Shown here: in pieces, positions 6,715-45,724 of the stretch
How the letters are laid out: every line of letters begins with the position of its first letter
How positions within the stretch are numbered: position 1 is the stretch's first letter
Source: Bdellovibrionales bacterium
GTDB lineage: Bacteria; Bdellovibrionota; UBA1018; JADZFF01
DNA: 64,000 nt
Assembly (NCBI GenBank): GCA_020850015.1
Contig: JADZFF010000102.1
Coordinates: forward strand, 128 to 64,127
Direction: 5' to 3'
The notes under the pieces: model-generated
The model's database searches: none
What the model saw: only the letters and a program-made list of their open reading frames with translations
What the model was told of the DNA's origin: nothing
Position numbers and translations under genes: made by a program

Positions 6715-6718
6715 TCCC

Positions 6719-7021: not shown

Positions 7022-7039
7022 TCGCGGCCGGCGCGGGCA

Positions 7040-7058: not shown

Positions 7059-7088
7059 TCCCCCATCGCCTGACGGAGGCGCCGCTCA

Positions 7089-7098
7089 GGGGGGGGGG
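7089..7098. repeat. G10 homopolymer tract in the flp2 promoter region
   Basis: Ten consecutive G, counted directly. It ends 13 nt upstream of a TAGAAT hexamer (7112-7117), which lies 22 nt before the flp2 ATG. Confidence 0.9.
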
Positions 7099-7138
7099 CG
7101 CGCCTACGTGTTAGAATTCCTTTGTGGGGGTATCAGAA

Positions 7139-7390: not shown

Positions 7391-7403
7391 GCTCGCACTC
7401 CTG

Positions 7404-8179: not shown

Positions 8180-8190
8180 AGGAGGAGACC

Positions 8191-8718: not shown

Positions 8719-9295
8719 GGAAAAGCCGGCCCCGGAAAGGAAACGGAGCGTCCCTGCGGGGGGCGATGCGGGGGAGTCCGGGCAAAGCATCCTGGAGTTC
8801 CTGCTCATGGTGCCTCTGATGATCGGTCTTTCGACGCTCATGGTGAGGGTGAATACGGTGATTCAGGTTTCGATAGCCAATCAGAAGTACGCGCGTGCCC
8901 AGGCGTTCTTCCTGACTTACAACAGCCCCTATTACCCGGAGCTGCGTCTTCGGCAGCGCCTGGTGAACCAGGAATCCAATGAGATGATCATCGGCGTATC
9001 CGACAAGATCGCGCCGAAGAGCGAGGATCAGGCGGAGTACGACCCGGATCCCATCATCGTTCCGATCGTCTCGGCGTCTTCGCTGGCGGGCGAAAGCCAG
9101 GAACCCGAGCTGCCCCCCGAAGGCGGGAAGCGCGGCCGCGTGCGAGTCCGCACCACCGTCACGCTTTGCACGCAAGTGAACGTCGTCGAGACGGGCGACG
9201 GTTTCGTGCCCTACGACGGGTCTTCGATGCTCACTGAGACCCCCGTCGCCGGGCAGGTCACGTTCCCGTTCTGCAGGGGGGTATTCAGTGAATAA
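8708..9295 (+). CDS. TadE/TadF-like pseudopilin
   Basis: ESGQSILEFLLMVPLMIGLSTLM motif after a charged leader. The ATG at 8708 overlaps the previous gene. Confidence 0.65.
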   Translation: MAAEEKPAPERKRSVPAGGDAGESGQSILEFLLMVPLMIGLSTLMVRVNTVIQVSIANQKYARAQAFFLTYNSPYYPELRLRQRLVNQESNEMIIGVSDKIAPKSEDQAEYDPDPIIVPIVSASSLAGESQEPELPPEGGKRGRVRVRTTVTLCTQVNVVETGDGFVPYDGSSMLTETPVAGQVTFPFCRGVFSE

Positions 9296-10166
9296 TCGCG
9301 CGCTCACGCTATCCGTGGTCATGGGCATCCTCGCGGTGTTCTTCGTGCAAAGCTATGTGACGAGCATCGAGGACGGGGCCCGCAAGAAATTCGGCACCGA
9401 GGTGCTGGTCGTCGCCGCGAAGCAGGATATCGAGGAGATGGGCACGATCGACGAGACGATGCTCGAGCTCAAACCGATTCCCAAGACCTTCCTTGAGCCG
9501 GCCGCGATGGCCTATACCAAGGGCGAGGACGAGCAGGCGATCCAGGCCAAGATCAAGGAGCTGGCCGGCTACGTGGCCAGCGTACCGATCCGCCAGGGCG
9601 AGCAGCTGACGCTGAACAAGATCGTGGAGCCGAGCATCCGGACCGGCCTGGCCCCTCAGGTCACGCCCGGGCGCCGCGCGATCGCGATCCAGGTGAATGA
9701 CATCAGCGCGGTGAGCAAGCTGCTGAAGCCGGGCGACCGCGTGGATCTGACCGCGGTGGTCGAAGTCCAGGCGAACGCCCGGGCAAACCCGCTTGCCACG
9801 AAGCTCGCGAAAACGATCCTTCAGGACATCGTGATCCTGGCCGTGGGCCAATCGGTGACGAACAACGCTCCGCGGATCTTCGAGAAGGACGGCAGCTCCA
9901 CGAAGGCGCCCCTCAAGATGCGCTCGCTGGTGACCTACAATCAGTACACTACGGTGACGATCGAGGTGGAGCCCGCCCAGGCCCAGATGCTGGCCCTCCT
10001 GAACGCCGGCGCGCTCGTGCTCACGCTCCGAAACAACGACGACTCGGAACGCGTGGGCCTCGCCGGCATGACGATGATGGACGTGCTCGGGGCCGACGCG
10101 GTGAAGATCCTGCCGCCGCCGCCCCAGGCGGCGCCGGTGGCCAGGAAACCGGCGGGAGGAAAGTAA
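9288..10166 (+). CDS. cpaB: Flp pilus assembly protein CpaB/RcpC
   Basis: N-terminal TM anchor, then a SAF-like segment (VLVVAAKQDIEEMGTI) and an RcpC-like beta-rich region. It sits between the pseudopilin genes and the secretin gene. Confidence 0.8.
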   Translation: MNNRALTLSVVMGILAVFFVQSYVTSIEDGARKKFGTEVLVVAAKQDIEEMGTIDETMLELKPIPKTFLEPAAMAYTKGEDEQAIQAKIKELAGYVASVPIRQGEQLTLNKIVEPSIRTGLAPQVTPGRRAIAIQVNDISAVSKLLKPGDRVDLTAVVEVQANARANPLATKLAKTILQDIVILAVGQSVTNNAPRIFEKDGSSTKAPLKMRSLVTYNQYTTVTIEVEPAQAQMLALLNAGALVLTLRNNDDSERVGLAGMTMMDVLGADAVKILPPPPQAAPVARKPAGGK

Positions 10167-10170
10167 CGGC

Positions 10171-11847
10171 ATGAAACGGCTCCTCCTGGCGGCGCTTCCC
10201 CTTCTCTCGGCGGCCATCCTGGCCGCTGGGGGAATCGTGCGCGCGGAGGATGAGGCACCCGCTGAGGCGCCTTCGCCCGCGGCGGTTCCGTCTGAGGAGG
10301 CTCAGGCCGCGCCAGCGGCTGGCTCGGACGAGGGCGGAGCGGAACCCGGAAAGAGCCTGATCAGCACGAAGTCGGAGAAATCGGCGGAAAGGCGCCGGGA
10401 GCTCCTCACGATCGGCGAGGACAAGCTCGTCGACCTGGAGTTCGACGCGAACGTGTCAGGCAACGGCGTGATCGAAGGCAACAAGGCCGTGGCGACGGCT
10501 CAGCTCGTGCGCGTCCTGGGCAAACCGAAACAGGTGCTCTTCAAGCCTTTGAAAGAGGGCACTACCACGGTTACCATTCGCGACTCGGAGGCGAAGGTGA
10601 GGGTGATCTTCGACATCACCGTCACCTCGACCAACCTGGCTCAGCTCCTCAGGGAGCTCCAGGACCTGCTTCGCGACATCGAGGGGATCGAGCTGCGTGT
10701 GGTGGGGAAGAACATCCTCGTGGATGGCGAGGTGCTGACGCCCAACGACTACGGACGCCTCCTGGGCGTGATCGAGGAGCCCAACTCGCCCTACAAGGAC
10801 GTGGTGATGAACCTCGTCATGTTCTCGCCTCTCGCTCTCCAGTCGCTCGCCAAGCGCATCGAGGGAGACGTAAAATCCTTCGCTCCCGAGGTGCGGGCCA
10901 GGGTGGTCAACGGCAGGATATGGCTCACCGGATCCGTTGAAAATCGCGACCAGGCTCGAAGGGCCGTGGCGGTTGCGGAGCTCTACGTTCCGGAGGTCCG
11001 GCCGCAGGAGCCCCTCGAGAAGTTCGACGAGAACGCGAAACGGCTCACGCCCAAGCCGCTCATCCAGAATTTCATCACGATCAACGCGCCTCCTCAGAAG
11101 AAGGAGGAGAAGCTCATCAGGATGACCGTTCACTTCGTGGAGCTGAACAAGGACTATGCCCGGACCTTCGGGTTCAAGTGGCAGCCGGGCTTTACCCAGG
11201 ACGAGAGCATCACGCTCGCCACGCAGGAGGACGGGGACGCCGGCGCCGGCGGCTCCGGGAGCTTCACCGCCACCATCTCCAACCTCTTTCCCCGCCTCCA
11301 GAGCGCTCAGTCCGCCGGTTTCGCCCGCGTCCTGAAAACTGGAACGATCATGGTACGGAACGGCCAGGCCGCCTCGCTTCGCGATCTCTCGGGGTTCGCG
11401 TTCTCGCTGCCCAACGCCGGCGGCCAGAGCGGCAACGAGCAGGTCACCACCGGGATCAACGTGGCGGCCACGCCGAAGATCGTGGGCAAGACCGAGGACG
11501 TGGAGCTCGATCTCGATCTGAGGCAGGTCAACATCATCGGCATCACCGTGCAGGGCGCGCCGATCACCGCTACTCACGAAGTGAAGACGAAGATCTTCGT
11601 GCGTTCCAAGGAGAGCGCCGCAGTCGCCGCGGTGAACAGCGCGGAGATCACGACGGAGTTCAACAAGACGGATCCCGCGCCGGGCAGCTTCAGCGGTCAG
11701 ACCGGGCCGCTTTTCTCGCTTCTTCGGTCGAAGGATTACCGGAAGAAGAAGAACCAGGTGGTGATCTTCGTCACGCCGCAGATTGTCGAGAACGCCTCCG
11801 ATGGAACCGCGGACCTCAAGAAGAACTTCAGGGTGAAGGCGGAGTGA
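10171..11847 (+). CDS. cpaC: Tad secretin CpaC/RcpA
   Basis: Signal peptide, BON-like N-domain and a secretin C-domain (ARVLKTGTIMVRNGQAASL...GPLFSLLRSKDYRKKKNQVVIFVTPQIV). Confidence 0.9.
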   Translation: MKRLLLAALPLLSAAILAAGGIVRAEDEAPAEAPSPAAVPSEEAQAAPAAGSDEGGAEPGKSLISTKSEKSAERRRELLTIGEDKLVDLEFDANVSGNGVIEGNKAVATAQLVRVLGKPKQVLFKPLKEGTTTVTIRDSEAKVRVIFDITVTSTNLAQLLRELQDLLRDIEGIELRVVGKNILVDGEVLTPNDYGRLLGVIEEPNSPYKDVVMNLVMFSPLALQSLAKRIEGDVKSFAPEVRARVVNGRIWLTGSVENRDQARRAVAVAELYVPEVRPQEPLEKFDENAKRLTPKPLIQNFITINAPPQKKEEKLIRMTVHFVELNKDYARTFGFKWQPGFTQDESITLATQEDGDAGAGGSGSFTATISNLFPRLQSAQSAGFARVLKTGTIMVRNGQAASLRDLSGFAFSLPNAGGQSGNEQVTTGINVAATPKIVGKTEDVELDLDLRQVNIIGITVQGAPITATHEVKTKIFVRSKESAAVAAVNSAEITTEFNKTDPAPGSFSGQTGPLFSLLRSKDYRKKKNQVVIFVTPQIVENASDGTADLKKNFRVKAE

Positions 11848-11851
11848 GGTC

Positions 11852-13993
<2,142 letters not shown>

Positions 13994-14003
13994 GGGGAAG
14001 GGG

Positions 14004-14879
14004 ATGTTTTCGAGCTGGGAGGCTTTTCTGGGGATTCTGGGCATCGGCGTGGCCGTCGGTGGGATCTCCTATCGCTACAACAAGCGGTTCCTGGAGTGGC
14101 TCCGCTTCCACTCGATCGGCACCCGCGATTACATCGCCGAGCGGCTTTCCTCCATGTTCATCGAGATCCCGCCCAATACGATCTTGATCGGGCAGTTCAC
14201 GCTGAGTTTCGGGTTGGGGTCGGTTGTCTTCCTCCTCCTGCTCCCTAAGTGGTTCCTCGGCCTGTTATTGGGAGGGATTGTGATGATCGTCGGCTGGAAG
14301 GTGCCGAAGCCGGTGGTCGACATGATGTATTCCCGACGGGTCAGCAAGCTCGTGGCCCAGATGGTGGACGGCCTGGGATTGATGTCCAACGGGATGAAAT
14401 CAGGCCTGTCCGTGGTCCAGGCGATGGGCCTCGTGACGCAAGAGATGCAGAACCCCATCCGGCAGGAGTTCGAGCTCATCCTGAACGAAAACAAGTTGGG
14501 CGTCTCGCTGGAGGAGGCGTTCACGAATTTCTCGAAAAGGGTGAAATCGGACGACGTGGAGATGTTCGTCACCTCCGTGAACATCCTGAAGGAGACCGGC
14601 GGGAATTTGGCGGAAACCTTCGATACGATCGTCTCCACGATCCGCGAGCGCGTGAAAGTGGAGAACAAGATCAAGGCTTTGACCTCGCAGGGGCTCGTGC
14701 AGGGGATCTTCGTGATGTCCGTGCCCCCGGTCCTGGGGTTTCTGCTGTATCAGAGCGATCCGGACTTCATGCGGCCCCTGTTTACGACTACCATTGGATT
14801 GATTGTCTGCATGGTGATCGTCGTTCTGGAAGTGATCGCGTTCTTCATCATCAGGAAGATCGTCACGATCGACGTATAA
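14004..14879 (+). CDS. tadB: Flp pilus assembly platform protein TadB (T2SS-F family)
   Basis: A single T2SSF-type domain (LVAQMVDGLGLMSNGMKSGLSVVQAM...NILKETGGNLAETFDTI) flanked by TM helices. Confidence 0.8.
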   Translation: MFSSWEAFLGILGIGVAVGGISYRYNKRFLEWLRFHSIGTRDYIAERLSSMFIEIPPNTILIGQFTLSFGLGSVVFLLLLPKWFLGLLLGGIVMIVGWKVPKPVVDMMYSRRVSKLVAQMVDGLGLMSNGMKSGLSVVQAMGLVTQEMQNPIRQEFELILNENKLGVSLEEAFTNFSKRVKSDDVEMFVTSVNILKETGGNLAETFDTIVSTIRERVKVENKIKALTSQGLVQGIFVMSVPPVLGFLLYQSDPDFMRPLFTTTIGLIVCMVIVVLEVIAFFIIRKIVTIDV

Positions 14880-14922
14880 TGGTTTTCTGGGATTATTCCG
14901 ATCAGACCCATTAGGGGGGTAT

Positions 14923-16614
14923 ATGCATCGTCAAAAGTCCGCCACTCGCTCGCTTGGTATCTTCGCGGCCGCGCTTCTCCTAGGCGCCGCCGCGCCCGCC
15001 CTGGCGAACGTCAGCCTCCGAAACGGGAACTTCTTCATTGGATACACGGACATCATCTATCCGGGGGGGTTCGAGCCCAAGATCGAGCGTGTCTACAACT
15101 CGAAGTCCGGGTTCAGGGGGATCTTCGGCTGGGGTTGGGGAACCGAGTACGAGGTGCATCTCAAGGTGGCCGCCGACGGCAGCGTCGTGGCTCATGAGTA
15201 CGGCGGCGGCGCGGAGAACAGGTTTTCCCCCGTGGCTTTCAACCAGGCGCAGCTTCAGGGAGCGGCCGACGAGATCGCGGCGGCCGCTCAGAAAGCCGGC
15301 GCCGTGGGCAGCGCGGGCCAGTTGGCCGATCTTAAGAAAAGGCTCCTGGGCGACGCGCGTTTCCGCAACCAGGAATGGGAGAAGTACATCCAGCGCGGGC
15401 TCCTGAAGCCCCGGCAGCTTCCGGCGGGGACCCAGCTCACCTCGAATCGCTTCAGTTATCAATACATCACCAAGGTGAAGGACGGGTATGTCCGGAGCTA
15501 CGACAACGGGCGCGTGGAGCAGTTCGCCGAGAACGGCCGCCTCCTGAAGATCTCCGACAAGAACAACAACTTCATCCAGATCTCGTATTCGAAAGACGGC
15601 AAGGCCGACAAGATCGTCGACAACTTCAACCGCAAGATGTTCCTGACCTACAACGCCCAGGGGAACCTGGTGAAGATCCAGGGTGAGAACGGGAAGGAGG
15701 CCGCCTATACCTACGGTTCGCGTGGCGAGCTCCTTACGAGCAAGGACGTGGATGGCAACACCTACGCCTACACCTACGACAAGATCTACAACCTGACCCA
15801 GGTGAAGTACAAGGACGGGACGTCGATGGATATCGCCTACCTGGGCCGGGATCAGAACGATTCCGTGAGATCCGTGAAAGACCGGGATGGAACGCGCACC
15901 GACTACACCTACGACTGGAGCAAGAAGGAAACGGGTTTCCGCTCGGTGGGCGTGAAGGTTCTCGATAAGGATGGGAAGCGGGTCATCTCGCAGAGCGGAT
16001 ACGAGTACCACCTTAAGCGTAAGGCGAGCGGCGAGGAGTGGACCTACAAGATGGTCACCACCATCGACGGCGACCGCAGCGAGACGATCTACAACGAGTG
16101 TTGCGGCCTTCCGCTGATGATCAAACGCGGCGGCGAGGAAACCACTTTCGAGTACGACACGAAGGGGCACGTGACGAAGAAGACCACCCCCACCGAGACG
16201 ACCGTGCTCGCCTACGACCCGAAGCTGGGCAAGGTGACGAAGGTGATGCGCCAGTCGAAGGTGAGCAAGGCGAGCTCGAGTTGGTCGGAGTTCCAGTACG
16301 ACGGCAAGGGGAACCTGGTGTTCGCGAAGAACTCGACGAACAAGGGGGTCCGCCTGTTCTACGACGCCAACGGACGGATCAAGAGCATGGTGGACCAGGA
16401 CCGCCGCCGCATCGACTTCAAGTACAACGAGAACTCGAAGCCGGTGGAGATCACCGACCCCCAGCTCGGCACCATCCGCGTGAGCTACTCGAACAGCGGG
16501 GAGATCAAGAAGGTGGAGAGCACCGCGGGCCGGAAGATCGCGCTGCAGGTGACTTCGGCCTTCCAGAACCTGCTCGACATCATCCGCCCGGCGGGCGTGA
16601 GCCTGAGCTTCTAG
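14923..16614 (+). CDS. Secreted RHS/YD-repeat protein without recognisable C-terminal toxin or core
   Basis: Signal peptide (AAPALA/N) and a DUF6531-like start (GNFFIGYTD...RVYNS...GIFGWGWGTEYE). Many YD repeats follow (YTYGSRGELLTSKDVDGNTYAYTYD, FEYDTKGHVTK, FYDANGRIKS). It ends ...VSLSF. Confidence 0.8.
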   Translation: MHRQKSATRSLGIFAAALLLGAAAPALANVSLRNGNFFIGYTDIIYPGGFEPKIERVYNSKSGFRGIFGWGWGTEYEVHLKVAADGSVVAHEYGGGAENRFSPVAFNQAQLQGAADEIAAAAQKAGAVGSAGQLADLKKRLLGDARFRNQEWEKYIQRGLLKPRQLPAGTQLTSNRFSYQYITKVKDGYVRSYDNGRVEQFAENGRLLKISDKNNNFIQISYSKDGKADKIVDNFNRKMFLTYNAQGNLVKIQGENGKEAAYTYGSRGELLTSKDVDGNTYAYTYDKIYNLTQVKYKDGTSMDIAYLGRDQNDSVRSVKDRDGTRTDYTYDWSKKETGFRSVGVKVLDKDGKRVISQSGYEYHLKRKASGEEWTYKMVTTIDGDRSETIYNECCGLPLMIKRGGEETTFEYDTKGHVTKKTTPTETTVLAYDPKLGKVTKVMRQSKVSKASSSWSEFQYDGKGNLVFAKNSTNKGVRLFYDANGRIKSMVDQDRRRIDFKYNENSKPVEITDPQLGTIRVSYSNSGEIKKVESTAGRKIALQVTSAFQNLLDIIRPAGVSLSF

Positions 16615-16750: not shown

Positions 16751-16766
16751 TGGCACCGGAGTTGCT
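16751..16766 (+). promoter_or_regulatory. Sigma-54 promoter (-24/-12)
   Basis: TGGCAC-cggag-TTGCT, an exact match to TGGCAC-N5-TTGCW, 56 nt upstream of the ATG at 16822. An inverted repeat GTGTC-N6-GACAC lies at 16681-16696. Confidence 0.75.
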
Positions 16767-16821: not shown

Positions 16822-17001
16822 ATGAACAAGCAATTTTCCCTGAAGGCCCTTTTCGCCCTCGTGCTGATCGCCGCGTCGATCTCCAGCGGTTCGGTGCTGG
16901 CCTGCGGCGGCACGAACGACTCGAGCGACTCTAACCCGCCGCCGGATGCCACGGGCACCGGTCCCGGCACCGGTGGCGGCGCAGGCGGCGCGAACCCGTA
17001 A
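16822..17001 (+). CDS. 59-aa predicted lipoprotein with disordered Gly/Pro/Thr-rich mature part
   Basis: ATG with an AGGAG RBS. The signal peptide ends in a lipobox-like VLAC. It is not in the ORF track (<60 aa). Its sequence is MNKQFSLKALFALVLIAASISSGSVLACGGTNDSSDSNPPPDATGTGPGTGGGAGGANP. Confidence 0.5.
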   Translation: MNKQFSLKALFALVLIAASISSGSVLACGGTNDSSDSNPPPDATGTGPGTGGGAGGANP

Positions 17002-17221: not shown

Positions 17222-17237
17222 TGGCACCACCGTTGCA
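17222..17237 (+). promoter_or_regulatory. Sigma-54 promoter (-24/-12)
   Basis: TGGCAC-caccg-TTGCA, an exact consensus match about 105 nt upstream of the ATG at 17343. Confidence 0.75.
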
Positions 17238-17317: not shown

Positions 17318-17342
17318 CTCGCAGAGCGGAAGTGGAGTGCAG

Positions 17343-17618
17343 ATGAATAAGCGCCTTGTTTCGATCATGATGTTCGGTGTGTTTCTTTCCCCCAACGTCC
17401 TGGCCGTTTCCTCGGGAGCCGGTCATGTCGTGCTGTTTGAAGCCAGCGAAGAAGAACGTCCCTCGGGCCGCGCGGCGGGCCGCGACGCCGGTGAGATGAC
17501 CCTGTCCGAGCATTCGGGCAAGGACGCTCAGTGCGCGTTCGATGCGAACCCCCGCCACGCGTTGCTGGAGCGCTCTGGCGACTCCGGCGCCGCGGGACGC
17601 GGCTCGCGCGCGCTCTAA
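17343..17618 (+). CDS. Small (91 aa) secreted hypothetical protein, low complexity
   Basis: GGAG RBS, and the signal-peptide-like MNKRLVSIMMFGVFLSPNVLAVSS. The mature part is charged and Gly/Ala/Ser-rich. No recognisable family. Confidence 0.45.
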   Translation: MNKRLVSIMMFGVFLSPNVLAVSSGAGHVVLFEASEEERPSGRAAGRDAGEMTLSEHSGKDAQCAFDANPRHALLERSGDSGAAGRGSRAL

Positions 17619-25604: not shown

Positions 25605-25620
25605 TGGCACTTCAATTGCT
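25605..25620 (+). promoter_or_regulatory. Sigma-54 promoter (-24/-12)
   Basis: TGGCAC-ttcaa-TTGCT, an exact consensus match 38 nt upstream of the ATG at 25658. An inverted repeat AGTGC-N13-GCACT lies at 25524-25546. Confidence 0.75.
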
Positions 25621-35160: not shown

Positions 35161-36903
35161 TCAGTTCCCGAAGGGATCGTTGACCGACTCGCCCTCTTCG
35201 ATGGGCTCCACCCCCGGCTCGCCCGCTTCGGGAGAGGGGGGCGGCGGAGGGAGCTCCTCGGTCGGCGTTTCGCCGGACGGAACCTGGTCAGTCACCTGGG
35301 GGGTTTCGCCCTCGGAGGGGGTGATCTCGCCTTCGGAGGGAAGCTCCGACTCTGGGACCGCCGGCGCCGCCTCTCCGCCCTCGGGCGGGGGCGCTCCGAA
35401 GAGCTCTTCGTCCGAACCGCCACCCGTGGGCGGAGGCGGAACCTCGCCCTCGGGCGCTCCACCGTCGAGCTCATCGTCGGTGGGGGCGGCCCCGCCCTCG
35501 GGGGGGTTGGACTGCCACTGTTCCAGCTGTTTCAGCTCGCGTTCCTCGTCGGGCCCCAGCCCGGAGGCGGGATCGAGGCGGTCGAGGTTGTCGAGCTCGT
35601 CGTCCAGCGCCCTCTGCTCGGGATCGCGCTCCTGGATGCCGCCGCTTCGGAGGAGGTCCGTGACGTCGGTGAGCAGGACCACCGTGTCATTCTCGTAGAC
35701 CTGCACGAGCGAGCGGATCGAGAGCGCGATCGAGATCGATTCGGTGGTCTGCAAGACCATGAAATCCGCGTTGATGATGAAGTCTGCGTTCGTGATCGTG
35801 GAGTCGTTCGTCGGATCGCGGTGCTGGTAGGCCCGGAACACCATGCCGGGCTGCACGCCGTCGGCCGACCCGCGGTCGATGTATACCAGCTTGTGCTGGG
35901 CAGTCGTGTAGGTGGAGATGTTGCGGTCGAGGATCAGAACTCCTTCGAGCGCGCGCGGCCCGGGGATGGGCGTGACGTTTACCACCCGGGGAACAAGCGG
36001 GATCACATAGGCGCCACGCTCGATGAAGGCTTTGCCGCTCACGATCTCGGCGACGAAGAGGCCGTCGCGGACCGCGATCACCTTGATCGTGCCCAGGTTG
36101 AGGTAGGAGTAACCCGCGCGGTCTGATTTGCGGGACTTCAGGAAGTAGGGGTCCTTGGTGATGGTGTAGCGTTCACCCACCTGCATGCCATCGCGGGGTT
36201 CGACGAACACCGTGTCGCCCATCGAGAGGTATCGCCCGTCCGAGCGGGAGCCGCGGATCTCGCCCAGCGCGGAGAGCTTCTGCGAGGAGGGAAAGGCCTC
36301 GGTTTCGAACCCCGTGGAGGTGTGTCGCACCACCTTGCTCCGGCGGTCGAAACCCAACGGATCGACCTCTGAGGGCAGCGCCAGGTGGACCGTTTCCCAG
36401 TCCTGGACCGGGAGGTCCTTCCACTCCTTGGAGCGCCCCTGAGGGACGGCGGGCGTGGCGGAGTTGTCGGCGACCTGCACGGCCTCGCCGGAGGAAAGTG
36501 CGTCCGATACCGTGCCGCCCAGACCGAAGGCGGGCAGGGAGCTGCCCGTGCCGGGCATGAAGGCGACGGCTTGCCCCGGCAGGATCACGTGCGGGTTCGC
36601 GATCTTCCCGTTATTCAGCGCCCAGACCTTTGGCCAGTACTTCGCGTCGCCGAAGAGGCGGGCTGAGATGTCGTAGAGGGTATCGCCCTTCACGACCTGG
36701 TACTCCTCGCTGACCTTTCCGCCCGCGATGAGCTTCCAGTCGTCGTCGGAGATGGGCTTGAGGAGCTTGGACACCTGAAATGTCTGCTCCTCGGGGCTGG
36801 GCGCGGCGAGCGTGGAGGGGCCGGACGCGGCCGCGAGCGCGGCGAGCGCGGCGGCCAGGCGCCTGCGCGCCCGTTCAGGTTTCTGGGTGGGCTGGCGGGG
36901 CAT
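35161..36903 (-). CDS. LysM-domain periplasmic protein with very acidic Pro/Glu-rich C-terminal tail
   Basis: Signal peptide and a LysM domain (YQVVKGDTLYDISARLFGDAKYWPKVWALN...ILPGQAV). The C-terminal ~150 aa are E/D/P/G-rich. Confidence 0.8.
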   Translation of the reverse strand: MPRQPTQKPERARRRLAAALAALAAASGPSTLAAPSPEEQTFQVSKLLKPISDDDWKLIAGGKVSEEYQVVKGDTLYDISARLFGDAKYWPKVWALNNGKIANPHVILPGQAVAFMPGTGSSLPAFGLGGTVSDALSSGEAVQVADNSATPAVPQGRSKEWKDLPVQDWETVHLALPSEVDPLGFDRRSKVVRHTSTGFETEAFPSSQKLSALGEIRGSRSDGRYLSMGDTVFVEPRDGMQVGERYTITKDPYFLKSRKSDRAGYSYLNLGTIKVIAVRDGLFVAEIVSGKAFIERGAYVIPLVPRVVNVTPIPGPRALEGVLILDRNISTYTTAQHKLVYIDRGSADGVQPGMVFRAYQHRDPTNDSTITNADFIINADFMVLQTTESISIALSIRSLVQVYENDTVVLLTDVTDLLRSGGIQERDPEQRALDDELDNLDRLDPASGLGPDEERELKQLEQWQSNPPEGGAAPTDDELDGGAPEGEVPPPPTGGGSDEELFGAPPPEGGEAAPAVPESELPSEGEITPSEGETPQVTDQVPSGETPTEELPPPPPSPEAGEPGVEPIEEGESVNDPFGN

Positions 36904-37798
36904 CTTCAGTCGATTCCTCGGGGAGCGTGTTCAGGGGCGCCGTGATCGGCGGGGCGTCGATTCCAGATCCCAGCGGTTCCGGAGCGAAATTTTCCGCGGG
37001 CGCGGCCTTGGCCTCCGTCAGAGCGGGTTTCTCTTTCCGGCCCACGGGGCTCGTGACCACCGAACGGGCGGCTGGCGACTGCGGGAAGAGCGACAGAAGG
37101 GACTGCCGCGAACGCTCAGCACCGTCGCGGTCCTGCAGGTGCTCATCCGCCTCGGACAGGAGAGCCAGGGAGTCCGCTACGTGGCGGCCACGGGGGTACG
37201 CGGAGAGGGAGCGGCTCAGTTCCTCCCGTGCGAGCTTGTATTCACGATTCTTCAGGTAGGCGGCGCCGATGAAGTGCTGGGCGGAGCCGGCCAGCGCATG
37301 GTCCGGGAATCGTTTCAGGAAGCCGGAAAACGCAAGGATCGAGTCGGAGAATTGCCCGGCCTCGAATCCGATCAAAGCATCGCGGTAAGCCTGCACCGCC
37401 GGGTCGCGCGAGAAGCTCATGATCGGCCCGCCGCGGTGATCGGGAGTGTCTGGAGAGGCGCCGCGCGCCGAGCTGGGGTGCACTGAAACGGGTGTCGCGC
37501 GATCGCCCTTGCGCAAGAGCTGGTCCATTCCCTCGCGGGCGAAGTTGGCTTTTTCGCCCACCGAAGCGAGCTTGTCTTCGAGGTCCTGCACCTTCGCGGT
37601 CATCGCGGTCAGGGATTCGCGGAGGCGCTCCACCTGCGCGGGAAGCTCGTCCGAGCCGGCCGCTGACGCATCCTTCGAGGCCGTGGTTTCCTTGGGCGCG
37701 CTCGAATCCGTGGTGGCGCATCCCGACGCGGCGAAAATCAGGAAGGCGAGCGCCGTCGTCACGCGGGAGGGGCTGAATAATATTGGAAAAAGTCCCAT
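36875..37798 (-). CDS. cpoB: Tol-Pal associated TPR lipoprotein CpoB/YbgF-like
   Basis: Lipobox IFAASGC, an N-terminal coiled coil and C-terminal TPRs (YRDALIGFEAGQFSDSILAFSGFLKRFPDHALAGSAQHFIGAAY). Confidence 0.7.
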   Translation of the reverse strand: MGLFPILFSPSRVTTALAFLIFAASGCATTDSSAPKETTASKDASAAGSDELPAQVERLRESLTAMTAKVQDLEDKLASVGEKANFAREGMDQLLRKGDRATPVSVHPSSARGASPDTPDHRGGPIMSFSRDPAVQAYRDALIGFEAGQFSDSILAFSGFLKRFPDHALAGSAQHFIGAAYLKNREYKLAREELSRSLSAYPRGRHVADSLALLSEADEHLQDRDGAERSRQSLLSLFPQSPAARSVVTSPVGRKEKPALTEAKAAPAENFAPEPLGSGIDAPPITAPLNTLPEESTEDAPPAHPET

Positions 37799-37875
37799 GA
37801 TTTTAGGATAAGGGCCCGGCGCGCTTGCCGCAAGCAACCGCGTGGTTCAGAGTGCATCTCCGAGACGACGGAAAC

Positions 37876-38130
37876 ATGACGCAGACTCCGCAGAATGACC
37901 CCTCGGGCGTGGCCACCTGGACCTTGCGCACCCGCAAGGAGGACTCGGCCTTCCTTTACACCGTGCTCGAAGCCACGGAGGGGATCGCCAGTTTCACGAC
38001 GCTGCCTCACGCGCCTGGCGAGGCGGACCGCACGGTGGAGCTCCTGATCCCCGTGAGCCGGCTTCCGGAGGCGGAGCAGCTGGTGTGCAGCCTGGGTGCG
38101 GTCATCGTCGAGGCGAGAAAGGATCTCTGA
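37876..38130 (+). CDS. DUF4911-like small protein
   Basis: 84 aa. RTRKEDSAFLYTVLEATEGIASFTTL....RTVELLIPVS resembles the DUF4911 pattern. This is a memory-based assignment. Confidence 0.45.
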   Translation: MTQTPQNDPSGVATWTLRTRKEDSAFLYTVLEATEGIASFTTLPHAPGEADRTVELLIPVSRLPEAEQLVCSLGAVIVEARKDL

Positions 38131-38171
38131 GCTTTCGCACCTGGCATGGCCGTTGCTCTCCGTTCCCGCGC

Positions 38172-39206
38172 GTGAACTCCTCCTCACTTTGGTTTCTCTC
38201 CTCCCTCGCGTTGTTGCTTTCGCTGCGGTCGGCGGCGCCGCGAGTCCTCCGCGCGGCGGGAGGGGGCGAGGGGGCGCGGTTGCTCAGGGAAAGCCGAAAC
38301 GCGGCCGCGGAGTTTCAGCGCCTGGCTGACTGCGTGCGGGGGGGGCTTCTGCCCTCGCCATCGGATTGGGAGGCACTGGAGGGGTTGCCCGGGAATTGGG
38401 GCGCCTTCCTCGGGCGGGCGGTGAGGGAGCTCAGAGCGTCGGGAGGGGAGGTTCTTCCCACCTTGAACCGCGCGAGCGCGTTGGCCGTGGAGGAGGAGCG
38501 CTCTCTTTGGAGCGCGCGTGAGAAGGCTGGGCAGGCGACGGCTCAGGCGGGGGCCCTCGTGGTGCTGACTCCCCTCACGGGGATGGCGCTCTACTGGCTG
38601 GTTCCCGAGCTCGACCGCGCGCTCTTCGCCTGGACGACGGCCTGCGCGCTCGCGACCGCCCTTTCCGTGGGCGGCGCGGCTTGGCTGCTGGCCACCGCGG
38701 ATCGCGCGCGATGGGGCGGAGCGAAGGGGCTGGAGCGCCAGTGGCGCGCGCTGCTTGCCTGCGCGGGGGAGAGATTGGCCGCGAGAGTGCGGGGAGGGAC
38801 CCCTCCTGATCTGGCCTGGGAGGACGTTCACGCCGCCCTTTCCGCGAGGGACCTGGACCTCGGTGCGATCTGGGGCGCTTCCATCTGGGGCGAGACGGGG
38901 CCCTCGATCCGAATGAAGGCGCCGATGGTACAGGCCTGTGTCTCGCTTCCCGGGCGCCTTCGGGCGGCGGCACGGGTCTCCGTCATGGAGGGCACGCCTT
39001 GCCTGGAAAGGCTGGAGTCCGGGCTGGAGGCCTTTAGGCGGGAGACCGAAGGGGCCGTGGCCCGCGAGCTCGCGCGGCTTCCGGTGCGCGCGCTCCAGCC
39101 TCTTTTCCTCTGCCAGGCTCCGGCGTTGGTGGCGCTGCTGGCGGGCGCCATGCTCGCGGCCTTCCTGGGCCCGGGTGTGTTGCCGGATTCCTCGGGGGGC
39201 CTCTGA
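38172..39206 (+). CDS. Polytopic membrane protein with two GspF/T2SS-F-like repeats (divergent platform protein candidate)
   Basis: Two repeats of the pattern ...G(G/T)..L..L......(E)ER......(A/E)..A...A.....L.PL + TM (SGGEVLPTLNRASALAVEEERSLWSAREKAGQATAQAGALVVLTPL and EGTPCLERLESGLEAFRRETEGAVARELARLPVRALQPLFL). The ORF is open from 38085; a GTG lies at 38172. Confidence 0.4.
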   Translation: MNSSSLWFLSSLALLLSLRSAAPRVLRAAGGGEGARLLRESRNAAAEFQRLADCVRGGLLPSPSDWEALEGLPGNWGAFLGRAVRELRASGGEVLPTLNRASALAVEEERSLWSAREKAGQATAQAGALVVLTPLTGMALYWLVPELDRALFAWTTACALATALSVGGAAWLLATADRARWGGAKGLERQWRALLACAGERLAARVRGGTPPDLAWEDVHAALSARDLDLGAIWGASIWGETGPSIRMKAPMVQACVSLPGRLRAAARVSVMEGTPCLERLESGLEAFRRETEGAVARELARLPVRALQPLFLCQAPALVALLAGAMLAAFLGPGVLPDSSGGL

Positions 39207-39353
39207 CCGCGGTAAGGGCTTTTTTCGAGTTCTGCGCGTGGATGCTCGCCTTCGCGATCGCGATGTCCGGCCGCCCCTGGGCCTTTCCCCAAAGGGGAAA
39301 AAGCCTTGTTGAGGCCATCGAGGCCTCTGGGTCCGTCGCGGGAGCCGCGGGTC

Positions 39354-40343
39354 TCAGCCCAGCGAGCTTACGTAGGGATTCTTCTCGCGGTTCACGATCT
39401 CGAGGGCAGCGCAGTCGCGCCCAACGTGCGCGCTCTCGAGTTTTCCGCCCCGGTAAATCGCCACGTGCAGATCAACAAGCGCGGCCACGGAGCAGGAAAG
39501 CAGCGAGCCGTCCGTATCCTCGATCGAGAGGCCGGCGAAGTCCTTGAGGCTGGCGCGGAAGTGCCCACGGAAACTGAGATCTCCTCGGTCCGCCTGGAAT
39601 CGCCACTCGGTCAGGCTCTGCGATGAGCGGATGCGAATCGAGTCCAGGAGTCCGTTGAACTCATGGGGCTGGCCCCGGTAGTGGAAGTACATCGCGGATA
39701 GGCGGGGAGAGCGGAGCCCGCCGGGGAGCCGAGCCCTGGCGGTAAGGCCGTCGAAGATGAGGTCCGAGGGAGCCCCTTCGGCGTCGCGGAAATGGTTGCA
39801 GTGCCCCCAGATCCAGGAATGAGCGTGAGTGGGGCCGGAGATGGCTCCCCACATTCCCGGCACCGCTTCCACCTGAAAAGACCTGCCGTCCACGGAATAA
39901 GATCCCGTGAACAGGAGCAGTTCCTCGCAGGTCACCGCGCGATTCCTCACCAGGCCGGACCTCGCGAGGTTCTCGGATACGAAATCAAAGGACTGGCCAC
40001 CGGCCGTCTTCAGGGCGAAGTCCCAAGAGATCGCCGAGCCCTTGGACTGGGCGGCGCCCCGCAGGCGGGAGCCGGAGAATTCGCAGTCGCCGAGGCGGGC
40101 CTGGTCCGGCGAGGCGATCAGCTCCTCCAGGTCAGATCCGCGTTTCACAGCGGACTTTTCCACCTCGCCGCTCTCGAGCTTTCTCCAAAACACGGCGGAA
40201 ACCTCGGCCGACCGGCGGAAGCCGTTGCGGCTCGCGAGCACGGTGAATCGGATGAGCAGGGCCTGCCGCCTCGAAGGATCGTTCAGTTTGAAGTACCACT
40301 CGTGGTGATAACCCGTGCGGGCCGCTGCGTCTGGAATGGTCAC
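39354..40343 (-). CDS. Hypothetical beta-rich protein, weakly AttH/CrtC/tocopherol-cyclase-like at the N-terminus
   Basis: The GTG at 40343 overlaps the ATPase stop (GTGA); an alternative ATG is at 40397. GYHHEWYFKLND resembles the (E/G)WWYF start of the AttH/tocopherol-cyclase fold. No signal peptide was seen. Confidence 0.6.
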   Translation of the reverse strand: MTIPDAAARTGYHHEWYFKLNDPSRRQALLIRFTVLASRNGFRRSAEVSAVFWRKLESGEVEKSAVKRGSDLEELIASPDQARLGDCEFSGSRLRGAAQSKGSAISWDFALKTAGGQSFDFVSENLARSGLVRNRAVTCEELLLFTGSYSVDGRSFQVEAVPGMWGAISGPTHAHSWIWGHCNHFRDAEGAPSDLIFDGLTARARLPGGLRSPRLSAMYFHYRGQPHEFNGLLDSIRIRSSQSLTEWRFQADRGDLSFRGHFRASLKDFAGLSIEDTDGSLLSCSVAALVDLHVAIYRGGKLESAHVGRDCAALEIVNREKNPYVSSLG

Positions 40344-41338
40344 CGGAATCGGGAGGGCGCCGCGGGTCGGGCGGGGGTCTCTGTGGGCTGCGGCCATGCT
40401 CTTCTTAGTAACACCGGTCTCAACATGACGGTATCCCCCTCCCGGCCCTCGATTCGGCAGAGCTCCGAGATGAACCGAGCGGAACCCGCGCGCTCCACAT
40501 GTGCCACCCAGCGCAGCCCGGAGGCGATGAGCTCCCGGATGAGCGAGGTTCCGATCGCCCCGCCGCTCGCCAGGAGACAGAGGAGCTCGATGCGTCTGAG
40601 AGCATCGCGGGCGGAATCGGCGTGTAGGGTGGCGAAGGCTCCGCCGTGGCCAGTGTTCAGGGCCTGAAGCAGCTCGAGCACCTCGGTTCCCCTGCACTCA
40701 CCGAGCACGATCCGATCCGGTCTCATTCTTAGGCTCTGGCGGAGCAGGTCGCGGACCGTGATCTCGCCGAAGCCGTCGGCGTTCGCGGGCCGCGAGACGA
40801 GGCTGAGAAAATGGGGATGGCGGGGAGCGAGCTCGGGCACGTCCTCCAGGGCGACGATGCGTTCTCCCGCGCCGAGGCTGCCCAGGAGCTCCGAAACCAA
40901 AGTCGTCTTTCCGCTTCCGGTGGCTCCCGAGACGACGATCGACTCCCTGGAGCGCGCCGCCTCAAGCACGCGGGCATAGGCCGGATCGGCGGACCAGCGC
41001 GGGGGGGCGGCCTCGTCGGATCTGGCAAGCCGCCTGAGAGAAACCAGTACTCCTCGGGGCGAGGCCGGCGGAAAGACGGCGTGAAGCCGGATCCCACCCG
41101 GGAGGAGGGCGTCGGCATAAGGCGAGCGCGCGTCCCAGCTTCTGCCCGCGGCGGCGAGCTGGTGCACGGCCCAGTCCCGGACCCAGTCTTTGCCTGGACC
41201 ACGGGCATCGGCCGAGGGGATGCTCACCGGACTCCACTCTCCCCGGCGGTCGGCCCAGGCTTCGGTCGAGCCGTTGATGCAGACATCGGTGACGTCGGGA
41301 TCCCTCAGGAGGGCCTGAAGCCAGTCAGGCGTGGTCAC
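40340..41338 (-). CDS. Compact CpaF/VirB11-class secretion ATPase (T2SS-E family)
   Basis: Walker A VSGATGSGKTTLVS, IVALEDVPEL, RMRPDRIVLGECRGTEV and NTGHGGAFATLHADS. An ATGA overlap joins it to the upstream secretin gene. Confidence 0.85.
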   Translation of the reverse strand: MTTPDWLQALLRDPDVTDVCINGSTEAWADRRGEWSPVSIPSADARGPGKDWVRDWAVHQLAAAGRSWDARSPYADALLPGGIRLHAVFPPASPRGVLVSLRRLARSDEAAPPRWSADPAYARVLEAARSRESIVVSGATGSGKTTLVSELLGSLGAGERIVALEDVPELAPRHPHFLSLVSRPANADGFGEITVRDLLRQSLRMRPDRIVLGECRGTEVLELLQALNTGHGGAFATLHADSARDALRRIELLCLLASGGAIGTSLIRELIASGLRWVAHVERAGSARFISELCRIEGREGDTVMLRPVLLRRAWPQPTETPARPAAPSRFR

Positions 41339-42822
41339 TGGAACGCGCTCCAGGGATAGGTCGGGTCGGAGTGGATCGCCTGGAATTCCTGGGGCGAAAG
41401 CCAGTTTCGGGGCGCGGGAACGGGCCCGGAGGGAAATTCGGCTTCTGAAACCTTCGCGAGTGGCGCGGAGGGAGCGGAGCGGTGGGGAATCAGTATGGCC
41501 AGGAGTTCGGAGCGCTCCTCGCCCCGCGCATGGACCCCGAACAGAGGGCCGAGCAGGGGCAAGTCGGACAGGAAGGGGATTCCGCTGGAGCCGGAGCGAC
41601 GGACTTCGCGGCTGAGGCCGGAGAGGAGCAATGGCCGTCCGTAGCGCGCGTCGACCTCTGTCTGGATTCGGTTCGCGCGCAGGCGTGGTAGCTCGGAGCC
41701 TCCCGAGGCGCCCGGATCAAGCTCGCTGACCTCCGTGGCGACGTTGAGGCGCAAACCGCGTGAGCCGCCTCTGGAGGTGACGATCTTGAGCGATACCCCG
41801 TGTGGGCGCCAGCTGACCTCGGAGCTGTGGCGGGAACGCACGCGGTAGGCGACTTCACCGCCCGAGAACAGGAGCGCCTCGCCGGGCACGCGCACCGAGA
41901 TTGAAGGGCGGGCGAGCACTTTCAGCTTCCCGCGTTTGGAGAGCGCGCGAAGCGAGGCCTCCACGTCGAAGCCCGCGCTCGCCGGCCAGCGAGTGATCTT
42001 CAGGGCGCCGGGCGCTTCGGAGGGCCAGTCCACGCCGAGTTCCAGGGCCTCGGTGTCGGAGGATTCCAGGAGGAAGGCTCGGAGAAAGACCGCGGGCGCC
42101 TGGCCGTCGCTCTGGTCCCATTCGATCGTCAGGGGGGGCCAGATCGCGCGCGCGGCCTTCTCCCAGGCGGAGGCCTGGGAGGGCGAGCTGGGTTGGCCGT
42201 AGATCCTGAGCTGAGAACCCTCGCGGTCCACCTGGGGTAGGGCGCCGCGGTCGCCCGTGAGCCTTTGGCTCCAGCCCCGAAGGGCGTGTTCGGCGGTTTG
42301 GAGGAGCTCGGGCGCGGGCTGGGTCAGATCGCGGACCGACCCATCGAAGCGGGAAACGAGCTCTTGGACCGCGGCGGCCTCGGAAAGGGTTCGGAACTGC
42401 CCTCTCAGGATCAGGATCTCGCCCATCGCGATCACCTCTACCTCCCGCAGGCTCCCGGCCGCGCGCATCAGCGGCGACGGCGAGCTACGGGCGCTCCAGG
42501 CCATGATTCGCACGGGGCGTCGTTCAGGTGCCGCATGGCGTCGCCAGATCCAAAGGTCGCATACTCCCGCGCGAATGGCCCGGACCAGAAGGGAATCCGG
42601 GGAGTCCGGCGGGACGGTGGCCTTGAGCGCATCGCAGCCGGGGGAGTAGCGGATCAGTTCGGGCGTGGAAAGAAGCCGCTGTTCCCCCACCGAGAGGTAA
42701 ACCGGGGCCAGCTCCAGGGGGAGTTTTCCCTCGGCGAAGCAGGGGCCGGCGAAGGCGAGTGCGAGAAGGGCAAAGGCAGGATGTGTGCGCATGGAGAGAC
42801 CGCAAAGCAATCGTCGAGCCAC
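41335..42822 (-). CDS. Secretin-family outer-membrane protein (CpaC-like)
   Basis: Signal peptide (ALAFAGPCFA/EG) and a C-terminal secretin pattern (GRPLLLSGLSREVRRSGSSGIPFLSDLPLLGPLFG....SELLAILIPH). The start is either GTG at 42822 or ATG at 42792. Confidence 0.75.
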   Translation of the reverse strand: MARRLLCGLSMRTHPAFALLALAFAGPCFAEGKLPLELAPVYLSVGEQRLLSTPELIRYSPGCDALKATVPPDSPDSLLVRAIRAGVCDLWIWRRHAAPERRPVRIMAWSARSSPSPLMRAAGSLREVEVIAMGEILILRGQFRTLSEAAAVQELVSRFDGSVRDLTQPAPELLQTAEHALRGWSQRLTGDRGALPQVDREGSQLRIYGQPSSPSQASAWEKAARAIWPPLTIEWDQSDGQAPAVFLRAFLLESSDTEALELGVDWPSEAPGALKITRWPASAGFDVEASLRALSKRGKLKVLARPSISVRVPGEALLFSGGEVAYRVRSRHSSEVSWRPHGVSLKIVTSRGGSRGLRLNVATEVSELDPGASGGSELPRLRANRIQTEVDARYGRPLLLSGLSREVRRSGSSGIPFLSDLPLLGPLFGVHARGEERSELLAILIPHRSAPSAPLAKVSEAEFPSGPVPAPRNWLSPQEFQAIHSDPTYPWSAFQ

Positions 42823-42901: not shown

Positions 42902-43024
42902 ATGGCTTCAAAGACCACAGTGACCCGCACCGTGCGCGCCCGCAAGAAATCCCAGCGGGGAAAAGTCCGTAAGAAGAAGAACCGGGCCAAAGGCACCACG
43001 CCGAAGTTTCCCATCCACGGGTAG
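42902..43024 (+). CDS. 40-aa highly basic small ORF upstream of metK
   Basis: GGAGAA RBS 6 nt before the [43 protein letters not shown]. It stops 4 nt before the metK ATG. Confidence 0.3.
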
Positions 43025-44412: not shown

Positions 44413-44707
44413 AAAATCGTGTCGAATTTCTTCTCTTGAAGTGCTGCGTTGAAGTGGAGCGCTTCGCCCGACCATTTTTAGCGTCAGTAATTTCACTGTG
44501 ACTTCAGAGGGTTATTGACGTTCTTAGAAAAGATTTTGACAGGGGTGCAGAAGACCCTTAGCCTCTTTTTAGGCACCGCGTTCCCCGGCGGAGGATCCTC
44601 CGGGGAAGACGGTACCTGCCACGGAAGTGGCGATCCGGTGGGCAGCAGGGAGCGCTGCGCTAATGGGAGTGGAACTCCCCTCGCCCGCAACAACTCATGG
44701 AAGGGTA

Positions 44708-45724
44708 ATGGCGATGGAACCGATGAAATCCTCGTTCGTGGGCGAGAGCCCCGCGATTCAAGACATCCTCAATCAAATCGATCAATACAGCCTAACGGAC
44801 CAGCACCTGCTGATCAGGGGTGAGAGCGGCACGGGCAAGGAGCTCGTGGCGCAGGCGATCCACGCGGGGTCGAGCCGCCGCAACGGCGCGATGATCTCCG
44901 TGAGCTGCGGAGCGATCCCGGGCGACCTGCTGGAGGCCGAGCTGTTCGGGCTCTACAAGGGCGGTCAGGGGCGTTTCGAGATCGCTCAGGGCGGAACTCT
45001 CTATCTCGACGAGATCAATGAGATGCCCCTCCACGTGCAGGCCAAGCTGCTGCGCGCGCTCCAGACCCGCCAGGCGGAAGTGGCGGGTGGCGGACGGAGC
45101 TACGAGTTCAATGTTCGGGTGATCGCGGCGACGTCGGCGGACCTCGAAGGCGCCGTGAGCCGCAGGGAGTTCCGCGAGGATCTCTATCACCGGTTCAGCG
45201 GGGCCGTGATGCGGATCCCGGCGCTGCGCGCCCGCAAGAGCGATATTCCGGTGCTCACCAAGGCGTTCGTTCAACGCTTCAATGCGCTGACGGGACACTC
45301 GGTAAGCACCCCTGACGGTAAAGTGATGGATGCCCTGATGGCCTACGACTGGCCGGGTAACGTGCGTGAACTGGAGAATCTGATGGAACGACTGGTGATC
45401 ATGAAGAACAACGGCGGCATCGAGCTCGAGGATCTTCCCACGAAGGTCTTCCGCAAGTACGCCGAGGATCAATCCCCGGGTGCCGGCGCGGTATCGGAAT
45501 GGGATTTCCCCCGCATGATGCTGCCCCAGAACGGGCTCGACCTGAAGGTGATCGTCTCGGCCTTCGAGAACCACCTGATCGACCAGGCTCTGACCCGCAC
45601 GCACGGGAACAAGAACAAGGCGAGCGAGCTGCTGCAGATGAACCGCACCACGCTGGTGGAGAAGCTGCGCCGCCGGGGCATGATCACGCCCCTCAAGAAG
45701 AAAGAGATCGAAGGGACGTCCTGA
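44708..45724 (+). CDS. Receiver-less bEBP-like AAA+ transcription regulator lacking the GAFTGA loop
   Basis: Walker A GESGTGKE, RVIAAT, an R-finger region and WPGNVRELEN, plus a C-terminal HTH (GNKNKASELLQMNRTTL). Where ELFGxxxGAFTGA....G.FE is expected, the sequence reads ELFGLYKGGQGRFE. Confidence 0.8.
   Translation: MAMEPMKSSFVGESPAIQDILNQIDQYSLTDQHLLIRGESGTGKELVAQAIHAGSSRRNGAMISVSCGAIPGDLLEAELFGLYKGGQGRFEIAQGGTLYLDEINEMPLHVQAKLLRALQTRQAEVAGGGRSYEFNVRVIAATSADLEGAVSRREFREDLYHRFSGAVMRIPALRARKSDIPVLTKAFVQRFNALTGHSVSTPDGKVMDALMAYDWPGNVRELENLMERLVIMKNNGGIELEDLPTKVFRKYAEDQSPGAGAVSEWDFPRMMLPQNGLDLKVIVSAFENHLIDQALTRTHGNKNKASELLQMNRTTLVEKLRRRGMITPLKKKEIEGTS

Follow-up and report, generated by a model that had tools for sequence, protein, structure and literature searches.

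A reduced Tad-type secretin, ATPase and platform gene cluster conserved beside metK in Bdellovibrionota

A 64,000-nucleotide (nt) stretch of a metagenome-assembled genome (MAG) of a Bdellovibrionales bacterium (the window, whose positions serve as coordinates throughout) carries beside metK a small cluster of genes for a secretin, an ATPase, a protein of the AttH/CrtC/tocopherol-cyclase fold and a convergent polytopic membrane protein. This cluster encodes a pared-down envelope machine of the Tad type (type IVc filament) that is ancient and widely conserved in Bdellovibrionota. The reading that we favor, to which we assign a probability of about 0.55, is that of a Tad-type motor, platform and pore using pilins and a prepilin peptidase that are encoded elsewhere. 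An earlier note, drawn up from the DNA letters alone, had described five open reading frames (ORFs) here, including the secretin, a 332-residue ATPase and a 329-residue protein, all five of which are present, and had placed the cluster outside the type II secretion, type IVa pilus, Tad and Com layouts. That placement gives way here to a reduced Tad variant, on the strength of best matches to CpaF and RcpA and of candidate pilin genes in one relative, locus L052.

A motor and pore of apparent Tad type

The secretin ORF (41335-42822, minus strand) extends to a GTG at 42822, the likely true start being the ATG at 42792, from which an RcpA/CpaC-type secretin of 485 residues with the signal peptide MRTHPAFALLALAFAGPCFA would be read (41335..42792). 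It matches the Pfam Secretin model (E = 7.6e-24), with a weak T2SS-T3SS_pil_N match at the N-terminus, and its best match in the PDB is the Tad secretin RcpA (8odn, E = 1.1e-15), in agreement with the CpaC-like label it had been given. The ATPase (40340..41338, minus strand, 332 residues from a GTG start) is a core-only enzyme of the hexameric TadA/CpaF type that is matched by Pfam T2SSE (E = 6e-35). Among solved structures, the Tad motor CpaF comes closest to it (E = 2.5e-50, over residues 7-309), with VirB11 (1e-31) and PilT well behind. Among NCBIfam models the TadA-family model TIGR03819 scores best at 271 bits (below its cutoff of 373 bits), followed by VirB11 at 172 bits, PilT at 53 bits, the GspE models at 31-35 bits and PilB at 27 bits. 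The Walker A (GATGSGKTT), Walker B-like (IVLGECR) and His box (GHGGAFATLHA) motifs are intact. Judged by these best matches, the ATPase and the secretin are of the Tad type.

A separate Tad locus with pilins and peptidase, also anticipated by the earlier note, is found at 7124-14879 (Tad locus 1) and encodes a Flp-like pilin, an A24 peptidase, TadE/F, CpaB, a secretin, a TadZ-TadA fusion and one T2SSF gene. The cluster ATPase shares 33% identity with the ATPase part of this fusion and the cluster secretin has no BLAST similarity to the secretin of Tad locus 1; the two cluster proteins are therefore not recent copies of that locus. At 11852-16614 (plus strand), the fusion of a ParA-like TadZ with TadA is followed by the single T2SSF gene, directly behind which an RHS-repeat/DUF6531 protein is encoded (14923-16614).

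The secretin, ATPase and AttH-like genes are chained by overlaps. The stop of the secretin gene and the start of the ATPase gene have a GTGA in common, as do the stop of the ATPase gene and a GTG at 40343, so that the two overlapping junctions described before stand, but both are GTGA and none is ATGA. The AttH-like gene (minus strand) encodes 329 residues from this GTG or 347 residues from an ATG at 40397 (39354..40397), in which case it overlaps the ATPase gene by 58 nt. The ATG, preceded by aagaag, is the start used by NCBI (IT285_08520, a 100% match to the 347-residue version) and is the more likely of the two. Exact-sequence look-ups of the window's proteins returned no match on record.

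Evidence for a fused platform

The convergent membrane protein (38172..39206, plus strand) has 344 residues from a GTG start that is in line with 24 homologues taken from related loci, which were aligned with it to give a set of 25 sequences. The window protein itself has no match in Pfam or NCBIfam, falling below threshold for Pfam T2SSF. A word-indexed homology search with the protein alone or with the 25-sequence profile recovered only itself and one relative among the best 8000 candidates, the query being rich in Ala and Leu. An exhaustive profile search of representatives delimits a closed family of 175 representatives of ~335 residues.

The two GspF/T2SS-F-like repeats that the earlier note had seen in this protein are borne out by remote homology. 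T2SSF is the sole recurrent Pfam match in the family (7 of the 25 members, best E = 0.0026), and one family member, P0207, rises above the Pfam T2SSF threshold (38.9 versus 25.2 bits) with two matched stretches. When the TadB of the window was compared by tblastn with 630 kb of loci, the platform genes were its best non-self matches. Profile alignment with hhalign gives E = 6e-5 for a 99-sequence platform family against the single TadB sequence; against a 10-sequence TadB family, the values are E = 1.1e-5 (probability 82%) for the whole platform, E = 2.8e-6 (probability 88%) for its N-terminal half and E = 0.043 for its C-terminal half, the last alignment being in register with the T2SSF domain. 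The GspF-like assignment thus held up in profile searches, both through the N-terminal half and through P0207. A test for an internal repeat between the two halves was not significant (E = 0.1-0.15).

The AlphaFold2 model of the protein is all-helical with a predicted local distance difference test score (pLDDT) of 94. The predicted layout comprises an N-terminal transmembrane (TM) helix, a helical cytoplasmic domain, a TM hairpin, a second helical domain and a second TM hairpin, and all 25 aligned homologues are encoded by one gene with two repeats. On these sequence relationships, the membrane protein is a divergent, compact, fused two-repeat platform of the T2SSF family, similar to TadB and TadC, and it takes the place of the usual separate tadB and tadC genes.

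Conservation beside metK

Related loci were gathered with a 13-sequence subset of the AttH-like alignment, and look-ups with the platform family added L051-L054. Relatives of the AttH-like protein are encoded in 35 genome loci, in about 26 of which the secretin, ATPase and AttH-like genes and the convergent platform gene adjoin metK; overall, the trio of secretin, ATPase and platform lies next to metK in about 30 relatives. The platform gene is present in every locus that has secretin and ATPase genes, save where the contig ends, and never occurred without these two. All four genes are co-directional in L031 and L054, and the trio is so in L031, L052 and L054. The wider synteny runs mlaEFD, a sigma-54 activator, metK, the cluster, a PmbA/TldD gene in part of the loci, DUF4911, a TPR gene, a LysM gene and dprA, and is repeated in the platform-family look-ups L051 and L053. 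One of the loci with the cluster, L028, comes from a MAG labelled Bdellovibrio sp. ZAP7. The neighborhood survey suggested in the earlier note thus yields a conserved trio that includes the platform, from which the AttH-like protein is separable.

The ratio of nonsynonymous to synonymous substitution (dN/dS) in the closest pair of loci (L021/L022, dS about 0.2) is 0.05-0.10 for all four genes, and 0.05 for the AttH-like gene. Across the relatives, the orthologues are ~30-55% identical and retain intact ORFs and catalytic motifs. The gene set is real and under purifying selection, and its conservation under such selection in about 30 loci argues against a chance arrangement.

Candidate pilins in trans and in cis

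A scan for ORFs with class-III signals found none between 34 and 47 kb of the window and none in 632 kb of the relatives' cluster loci; in the window as a whole, only three genes of Tad locus 1 match. No GspC/L/M, pseudopilin GspG-K or PilMNOP genes were found near the cluster in the ORF list, by Pfam or in the signal scan. Domain scans and the class-III-signal scan are thus in accord with the earlier view that the cluster has no pilin, peptidase, CpaB or TadZ gene. Its suggestion that the cluster may borrow the pilins and peptidase of the Tad locus is the option that we prefer, the full set being present in the window with pilins at 7124-9295 and the A24 prepilin peptidase at 7404-7919.

L052, a distant relative of low GC content, has genes for a secretin, a 209-residue protein, an ATPase and a platform in one operon, and its secretin, ATPase and platform are each closest to those of the cluster, not to those of Tad locus 1. 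Directly after the platform gene lies a 64-residue ORF containing GQAVAEYLIIG (…EEGQAVAEYLIIGTIVVLG…), which is followed by two ORFs with class-III-like signals and TadE/F-like N-termini. The earlier note had named pilin and peptidase genes within the cluster of relatives as grounds for refuting its reading; Flp-like and TadE/F-like candidates of this kind are present in this one relative. The presence of candidate pilin genes in cis in L052 suggests that the metK-linked form is a reduced derivative with pilins supplied in trans. The L052 stretch (280-16078) also encodes large coiled-coil or unknown proteins (708 and 1106 residues), which, like the 209-residue gene, have no Pfam match.

The AttH-like protein and its four-helix partner

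The AlphaFold2 model of the protein encoded between the ATPase and platform genes is a confident, all-β double β-barrel (pLDDT 95.5). Foldseek matches it to AttH (2ich, E = 3e-11) and to 7a0t (E = 2e-8), with a probability of 1.0 and a TM-score of about 0.5, and further to kievitone hydratase, the Diels-Alderases Fsa2 and Phm7 and 25-phosphosteroid lyase. Among 59 homologues, 37 match Pfam Tocopherol_cycl (PF14249) weakly, with a best E of 1.3e-8, and the window protein scores 11 bits against a cutoff of 26.6. A PDB sequence search with it found nothing, and identity to the solved structures of the AttH/CrtC/tocopherol cyclase/Fsa2-Phm7/25-phosphosteroid lyase fold is 9-13%. The family, with 91 homologues, has conserved polar motifs of its own, GHSWxWGHCN and EDTDGS, and, in contrast to known members of the fold family, is encoded either next to a 4-TM protein or within a Tad-like operon. 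The protein probably binds lipids or isoprenoids. No Sec or Tat signal peptide is detected in the window protein or in the 59-sequence consensus.

The AttH-like protein occurs in nine loci without any secretin, ATPase or platform. A gene for a ~150-residue 4-TM protein without Pfam match lies directly upstream of the AttH-like gene in 18 loci, including eight of these nine, and the pair of AttH-like and 4-TM genes is the sole recurring neighborhood in the machine-less loci. Examples of the 4-TM gene are at 9492-9980 in L008, 3271-3732 in L010, 9546-9974 in L026 and 4574-5101 in L037, and at about 9450-9970 in L024, L029, L030, L032-L035 and L039. The window is without it, and its closest relative, L005, has a degraded remnant (950-1255). 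We considered the 4-TM protein as a TadV-like prepilin peptidase and rejected this assignment: it has neither a Pfam match nor a GxGD motif and accompanies the AttH-like gene even where Tad genes are absent. The trio is kept in L052, where the AttH-like protein is absent, and in L051, where a secreted 167-residue protein stands in its place. These observations can be rationalized with the AttH-like protein being a cytoplasmic accessory from a separate two-gene module (4-TM and AttH-like) that was inserted in the operon. That it is exported cargo of the machine is very unlikely, because it belongs to a separable module with the 4-TM protein, bears no signal peptide and is folded like an enzyme.

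Candidate sigma-54 control

Both the secretin and the platform gene are preceded by an element of the pattern TGGC..-N5-.TTGC, the GG-N10-GC -24/-12 type used with sigma-54. The element before the secretin gene, TGGCTCGACGATTGC (42807..42821, minus strand), lies 14 nt upstream of the ATG at 42792, and that before the platform gene, TGGCATGGCCGTTGC (38142..38156, plus strand), lies 15 nt upstream of the GTG. Of 27 relatives, about 20 have an equivalent element with a score of at least 8 out of 10 at 12-16 nt from the ATG of the secretin gene; for the platform gene, about 10 of 29 have one at this distance from the start, and four more reach a score of 7. Background sites occur at 0.18 per kb per strand (P ~1.5% per 80 nt). 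The spacing of 12-16 nt from the -12 GC to the start codon is fixed at both promoters, which would give near-leaderless mRNAs for the secretin and platform units. The common promoter design links the platform gene to the secretin operon and sets it apart from DUF4911.

A candidate regulator of the cluster is encoded at 44627..45724 (plus strand), two genes from the secretin, by a gene conserved in most syntenic loci. This enhancer-binding protein (Sigma54_activat, E = 3e-51, and HTH_8) has a PspF-like design, with no N-terminal sensory or receiver domain and an AAA+ domain from residue 38. No site for an enhancer-binding protein was identified upstream of the secretin promoter. A conserved TAGCC-N17-TTGTCAA there was considered as an activator site and set aside, as it is a sigma-70-type promoter (TTGACA-N17-CTAAAT) of the divergent unit of metK and a 40-residue ORF. 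This extremely basic ORF (42902-43024, plus strand) lies just upstream of metK, has no Pfam match and is conserved in L001, L003, L040 and L051; in the relatives, its sigma-70-like promoter stands back-to-back with the sigma-54 promoter of the secretin.

Elsewhere in the window are three perfect matches to TGGCAC-N5-TTGC (16751-16765, 17222-17236 and 25605-25619, plus strand). The first two, some 50-100 nt away from the ORF starts that follow them, precede small secreted or lipoprotein-like ORFs at 16822-17001 (with a lipobox-like LACGG) and 17337-17618.

Flanking genes

The earlier note had counted a DUF4911-like gene in the cluster and had it overlap the platform gene; it ends at 38130, before the platform GTG at 38172. 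The window protein matches the Pfam model below threshold (17.7 versus 29.3 bits), and its orthologues carry PF16256. In the relatives, DUF4911 overlaps and is coupled to a PmbA/TldD gene, and the platform gene has its own promoter, so DUF4911 is better left out of the cluster. The PmbA/TldD-family gene (~490 residues) lies between DUF4911 and the platform gene in many relatives (13918-15393 in L001, 12204-13667 in L003, 6203-7687 in L051 and 7504-8970 in L053). The window and about ten other loci are without it, and the gap where it would be is 38131-38171.

A TPR lipoprotein (36875-37837, minus strand; lipobox FAASGC), with sub-threshold matches to YbgF/CpoB and BamD, is encoded by a gene overlapping that of a LysM protein (35161-36903, minus strand) of 580 residues with a long Pro/Glu-rich tail. 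The lipoprotein was considered for a role as a TadD-like pilotin and is a candidate for it. The pair is found beside the cluster in most loci, though not in the L052 and L054 stretches examined; beside the L054 cluster, no dprA, DUF4911, TPR or LysM gene was found.

Comparison with characterized machines

In terms of its parts, the cluster resembles the Tad/Flp systems (type IVc: Caulobacter Cpa, Aggregatibacter Tad, Pseudomonas Rcp/Tad) in its CpaF/TadA ATPase, its RcpA/CpaC secretin and a platform that begins with an N-terminal TM helix, as TadB and TadC do. It differs from them in that a single gene for a 344-residue platform with two short repeats replaces the separate tadB and tadC, the ATPase has no N-terminal extension, no Flp, TadE/F, TadV, RcpC/CpaB, TadZ or TadD gene is present, and an AttH-fold gene and sigma-54-type promoters are. 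Denise et al. (2019, PMC6668835) describe a pair of platform genes, arisen by fission, as systematic in Tad systems, so a Tad-type system with a single two-repeat platform gene is an exception. The platforms of the PilC/GspF type and of archaea likewise have two T2SSF repeats in one polypeptide, but are about 400-550 residues long, whereas the cluster platform is much shorter and starts with a TM helix; it is also below the Pfam threshold in most members and has partners of the Tad rather than the GspE/PilB type. The cluster lacks the GspE-type ATPase, GspC/L/M and pseudopilins of type II secretion, and does not have the type IVa pilus set of PilB/PilT-type ATPases, PilMNOP and a PilQ secretin with AMIN domains.

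A tad inventory of Bdellovibrio bacteriovorus HD100 (July 2026 preprint, bioRxiv 10.64898/2026.07.08.737194) lists a duplicated rcpA2-tadA2 module, "tad locus 2", which, like the cluster, is a second pair of secretin and TadA in a Bdellovibrionota genome. According to that preprint, deletion of rcpA2 or tadA2 caused no predation defect, the module has a distinct expression profile in common with flp3, and the authors propose "accessory or Tad-unrelated functions" for it. Its text describes tad locus 2 as two genes and mentions no platform, AttH-like gene or sigma-54 control. The main Tad locus of HD100 has a TadZ-TadA fusion followed by tadB only; because Tad locus 1 of the window has this same design, the cluster is probably the orthologue of rcpA2-tadA2. 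A difference lies in the TadV-type peptidase encoded at locus 1 of the window, an enzyme that is missing from Bdellovibrio genomes (PMC5430801).

The Kil system of Myxococcus xanthus, a Tad-like apparatus for predation (PMC8460266), is likewise a Tad-derived system with a non-canonical gene layout in a predatory lineage. Unlike the cluster, it comes with pilins of its own, with platform genes that are separate and with FHA/regulatory partners. By gene layout, Tad locus 1 is more likely than the cluster to be the Kil-type system of the window.

Discussion

Under the reading that we favor, the ATPase would dock on the platform at the inner membrane and, through the secretin, power the building of a short Flp-type filament or pseudopilus. 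The genes for its pilins and for the A24 peptidase would lie elsewhere, for example in the Tad locus at 7-15 kb, and the AttH/tocopherol-cyclase-fold protein would act as a cytoplasmic accessory of the inserted module and not as cargo.

Several observations weigh against this reading. Across about 30 relatives the cluster contains no gene for a pilin, a peptidase, RcpC/CpaB or TadZ, so that the pilus is something we infer, and the candidate pilins of L052, a single locus, match neither Pfam Flp nor TadE. The second T2SSF repeat of the window platform is only weakly detectable, its half giving the hhalign E of 0.043 cited above, and Foldseek of the platform model against the PDB returned nothing with E <0.05. 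This last negative carries little weight, because the bona fide TadB of the window also has no match in a PDB sequence search, in which the platform likewise found nothing. The AttH-like gene, finally, is deeply conserved in the operon, which speaks for a role in the machine that our model leaves unexplained.

The absence of pilins in cis across these loci is also what a pilin-independent machine would predict, in which the secretin, ATPase and platform have been repurposed, for example to move a hydrophobic or lipid-like molecule handled by the AttH-like protein (in many relatives with its 4-TM partner), or for outer-membrane remodeling. We consider this unlikely but deserving of attention. 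In most loci, the AttH-like gene separates the gene of the ATPase from that of the platform, and it is translationally coupled and under purifying selection; isoprenoids and steroids are among the hydrophobic substrates on which the AttH fold family acts; and the functions proposed by the HD100 authors for rcpA2-tadA2 would suit such a machine. However, no machine built on T2SSE and T2SSF is known to work without pilins in the established picture of type IV filament systems (Denise et al. 2019, PMC6668835), the trio persists where the AttH-like gene is absent (L052) or replaced (L051), and the pair of AttH-like and 4-TM genes leads an independent existence in nine loci. Less likely again is a more specific proposal, that the trio represents a distinct, anciently diverged Tad lineage whose platform was never split or was re-fused, and which is now a pilin-independent, sigma-54-controlled device that handles lipids together with the AttH-like protein. 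If this were true, the device would export or insert a hydrophobic molecule, for example, instead of building a pilus.

A minimal Tad-like apparatus for competence or DNA uptake, working with the nearby DprA, is improbable. The gene dprA is 3-9 kb away in most syntenic loci, and Tad pili have been connected with DNA uptake in other bacteria (PMC8513845), but dprA is one among the housekeeping neighbors (ddl, topA, metK, mlaDEF) of a conserved core synteny, no dprA is seen in the L052 and L054 stretches, which end 3-8 kb beyond the trio, and the cluster has no ComEA or ComEC gene.

The earlier note had also raised the possibility of a minimal outer-membrane export device for the co-translated 329/347-residue protein, and the tight coupling of the ATPase and AttH-like genes, by GTGA or by the 58-nt overlap, is consistent with this notion. 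It is nevertheless highly improbable, as the supposed cargo has no Sec or Tat signal peptide, is a compact, enzyme-like double β-barrel, occurs without secretin or ATPase in nine loci and is missing from L052 and L051, where the machine is kept. That the cluster is a decaying duplicate of Tad locus 1 without a function of its own would fit the missing accessory genes and the HD100 deletion phenotype, but is scarcely credible given the low dN/dS of all four genes, ORFs and catalytic motifs that stay intact among orthologues only about 30-55% identical, a secretin and ATPase too distant from locus 1 for a recent duplicate, and the conserved promoters.

In the predation of Bdellovibrio and Myxococcus, Tad machines hold a central place. 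The cluster described here shows strong selection, across a whole phylum, to keep a second motor and pore of the Tad type. What is new is the fused platform gene, which standard domain models miss, together with the lack of own pilin genes and the embedded enzyme-like protein. The secretin-ATPase pair itself is probably already listed as "rcpA2-tadA2"; to the description of that module are added the platform gene and candidate sigma-54 control. As a natural experiment, the cluster can serve to test if a Tad motor is able to share the pilins of another locus or to work without them, and the fission model for the evolution of Tad platforms can be examined on its single two-repeat platform.

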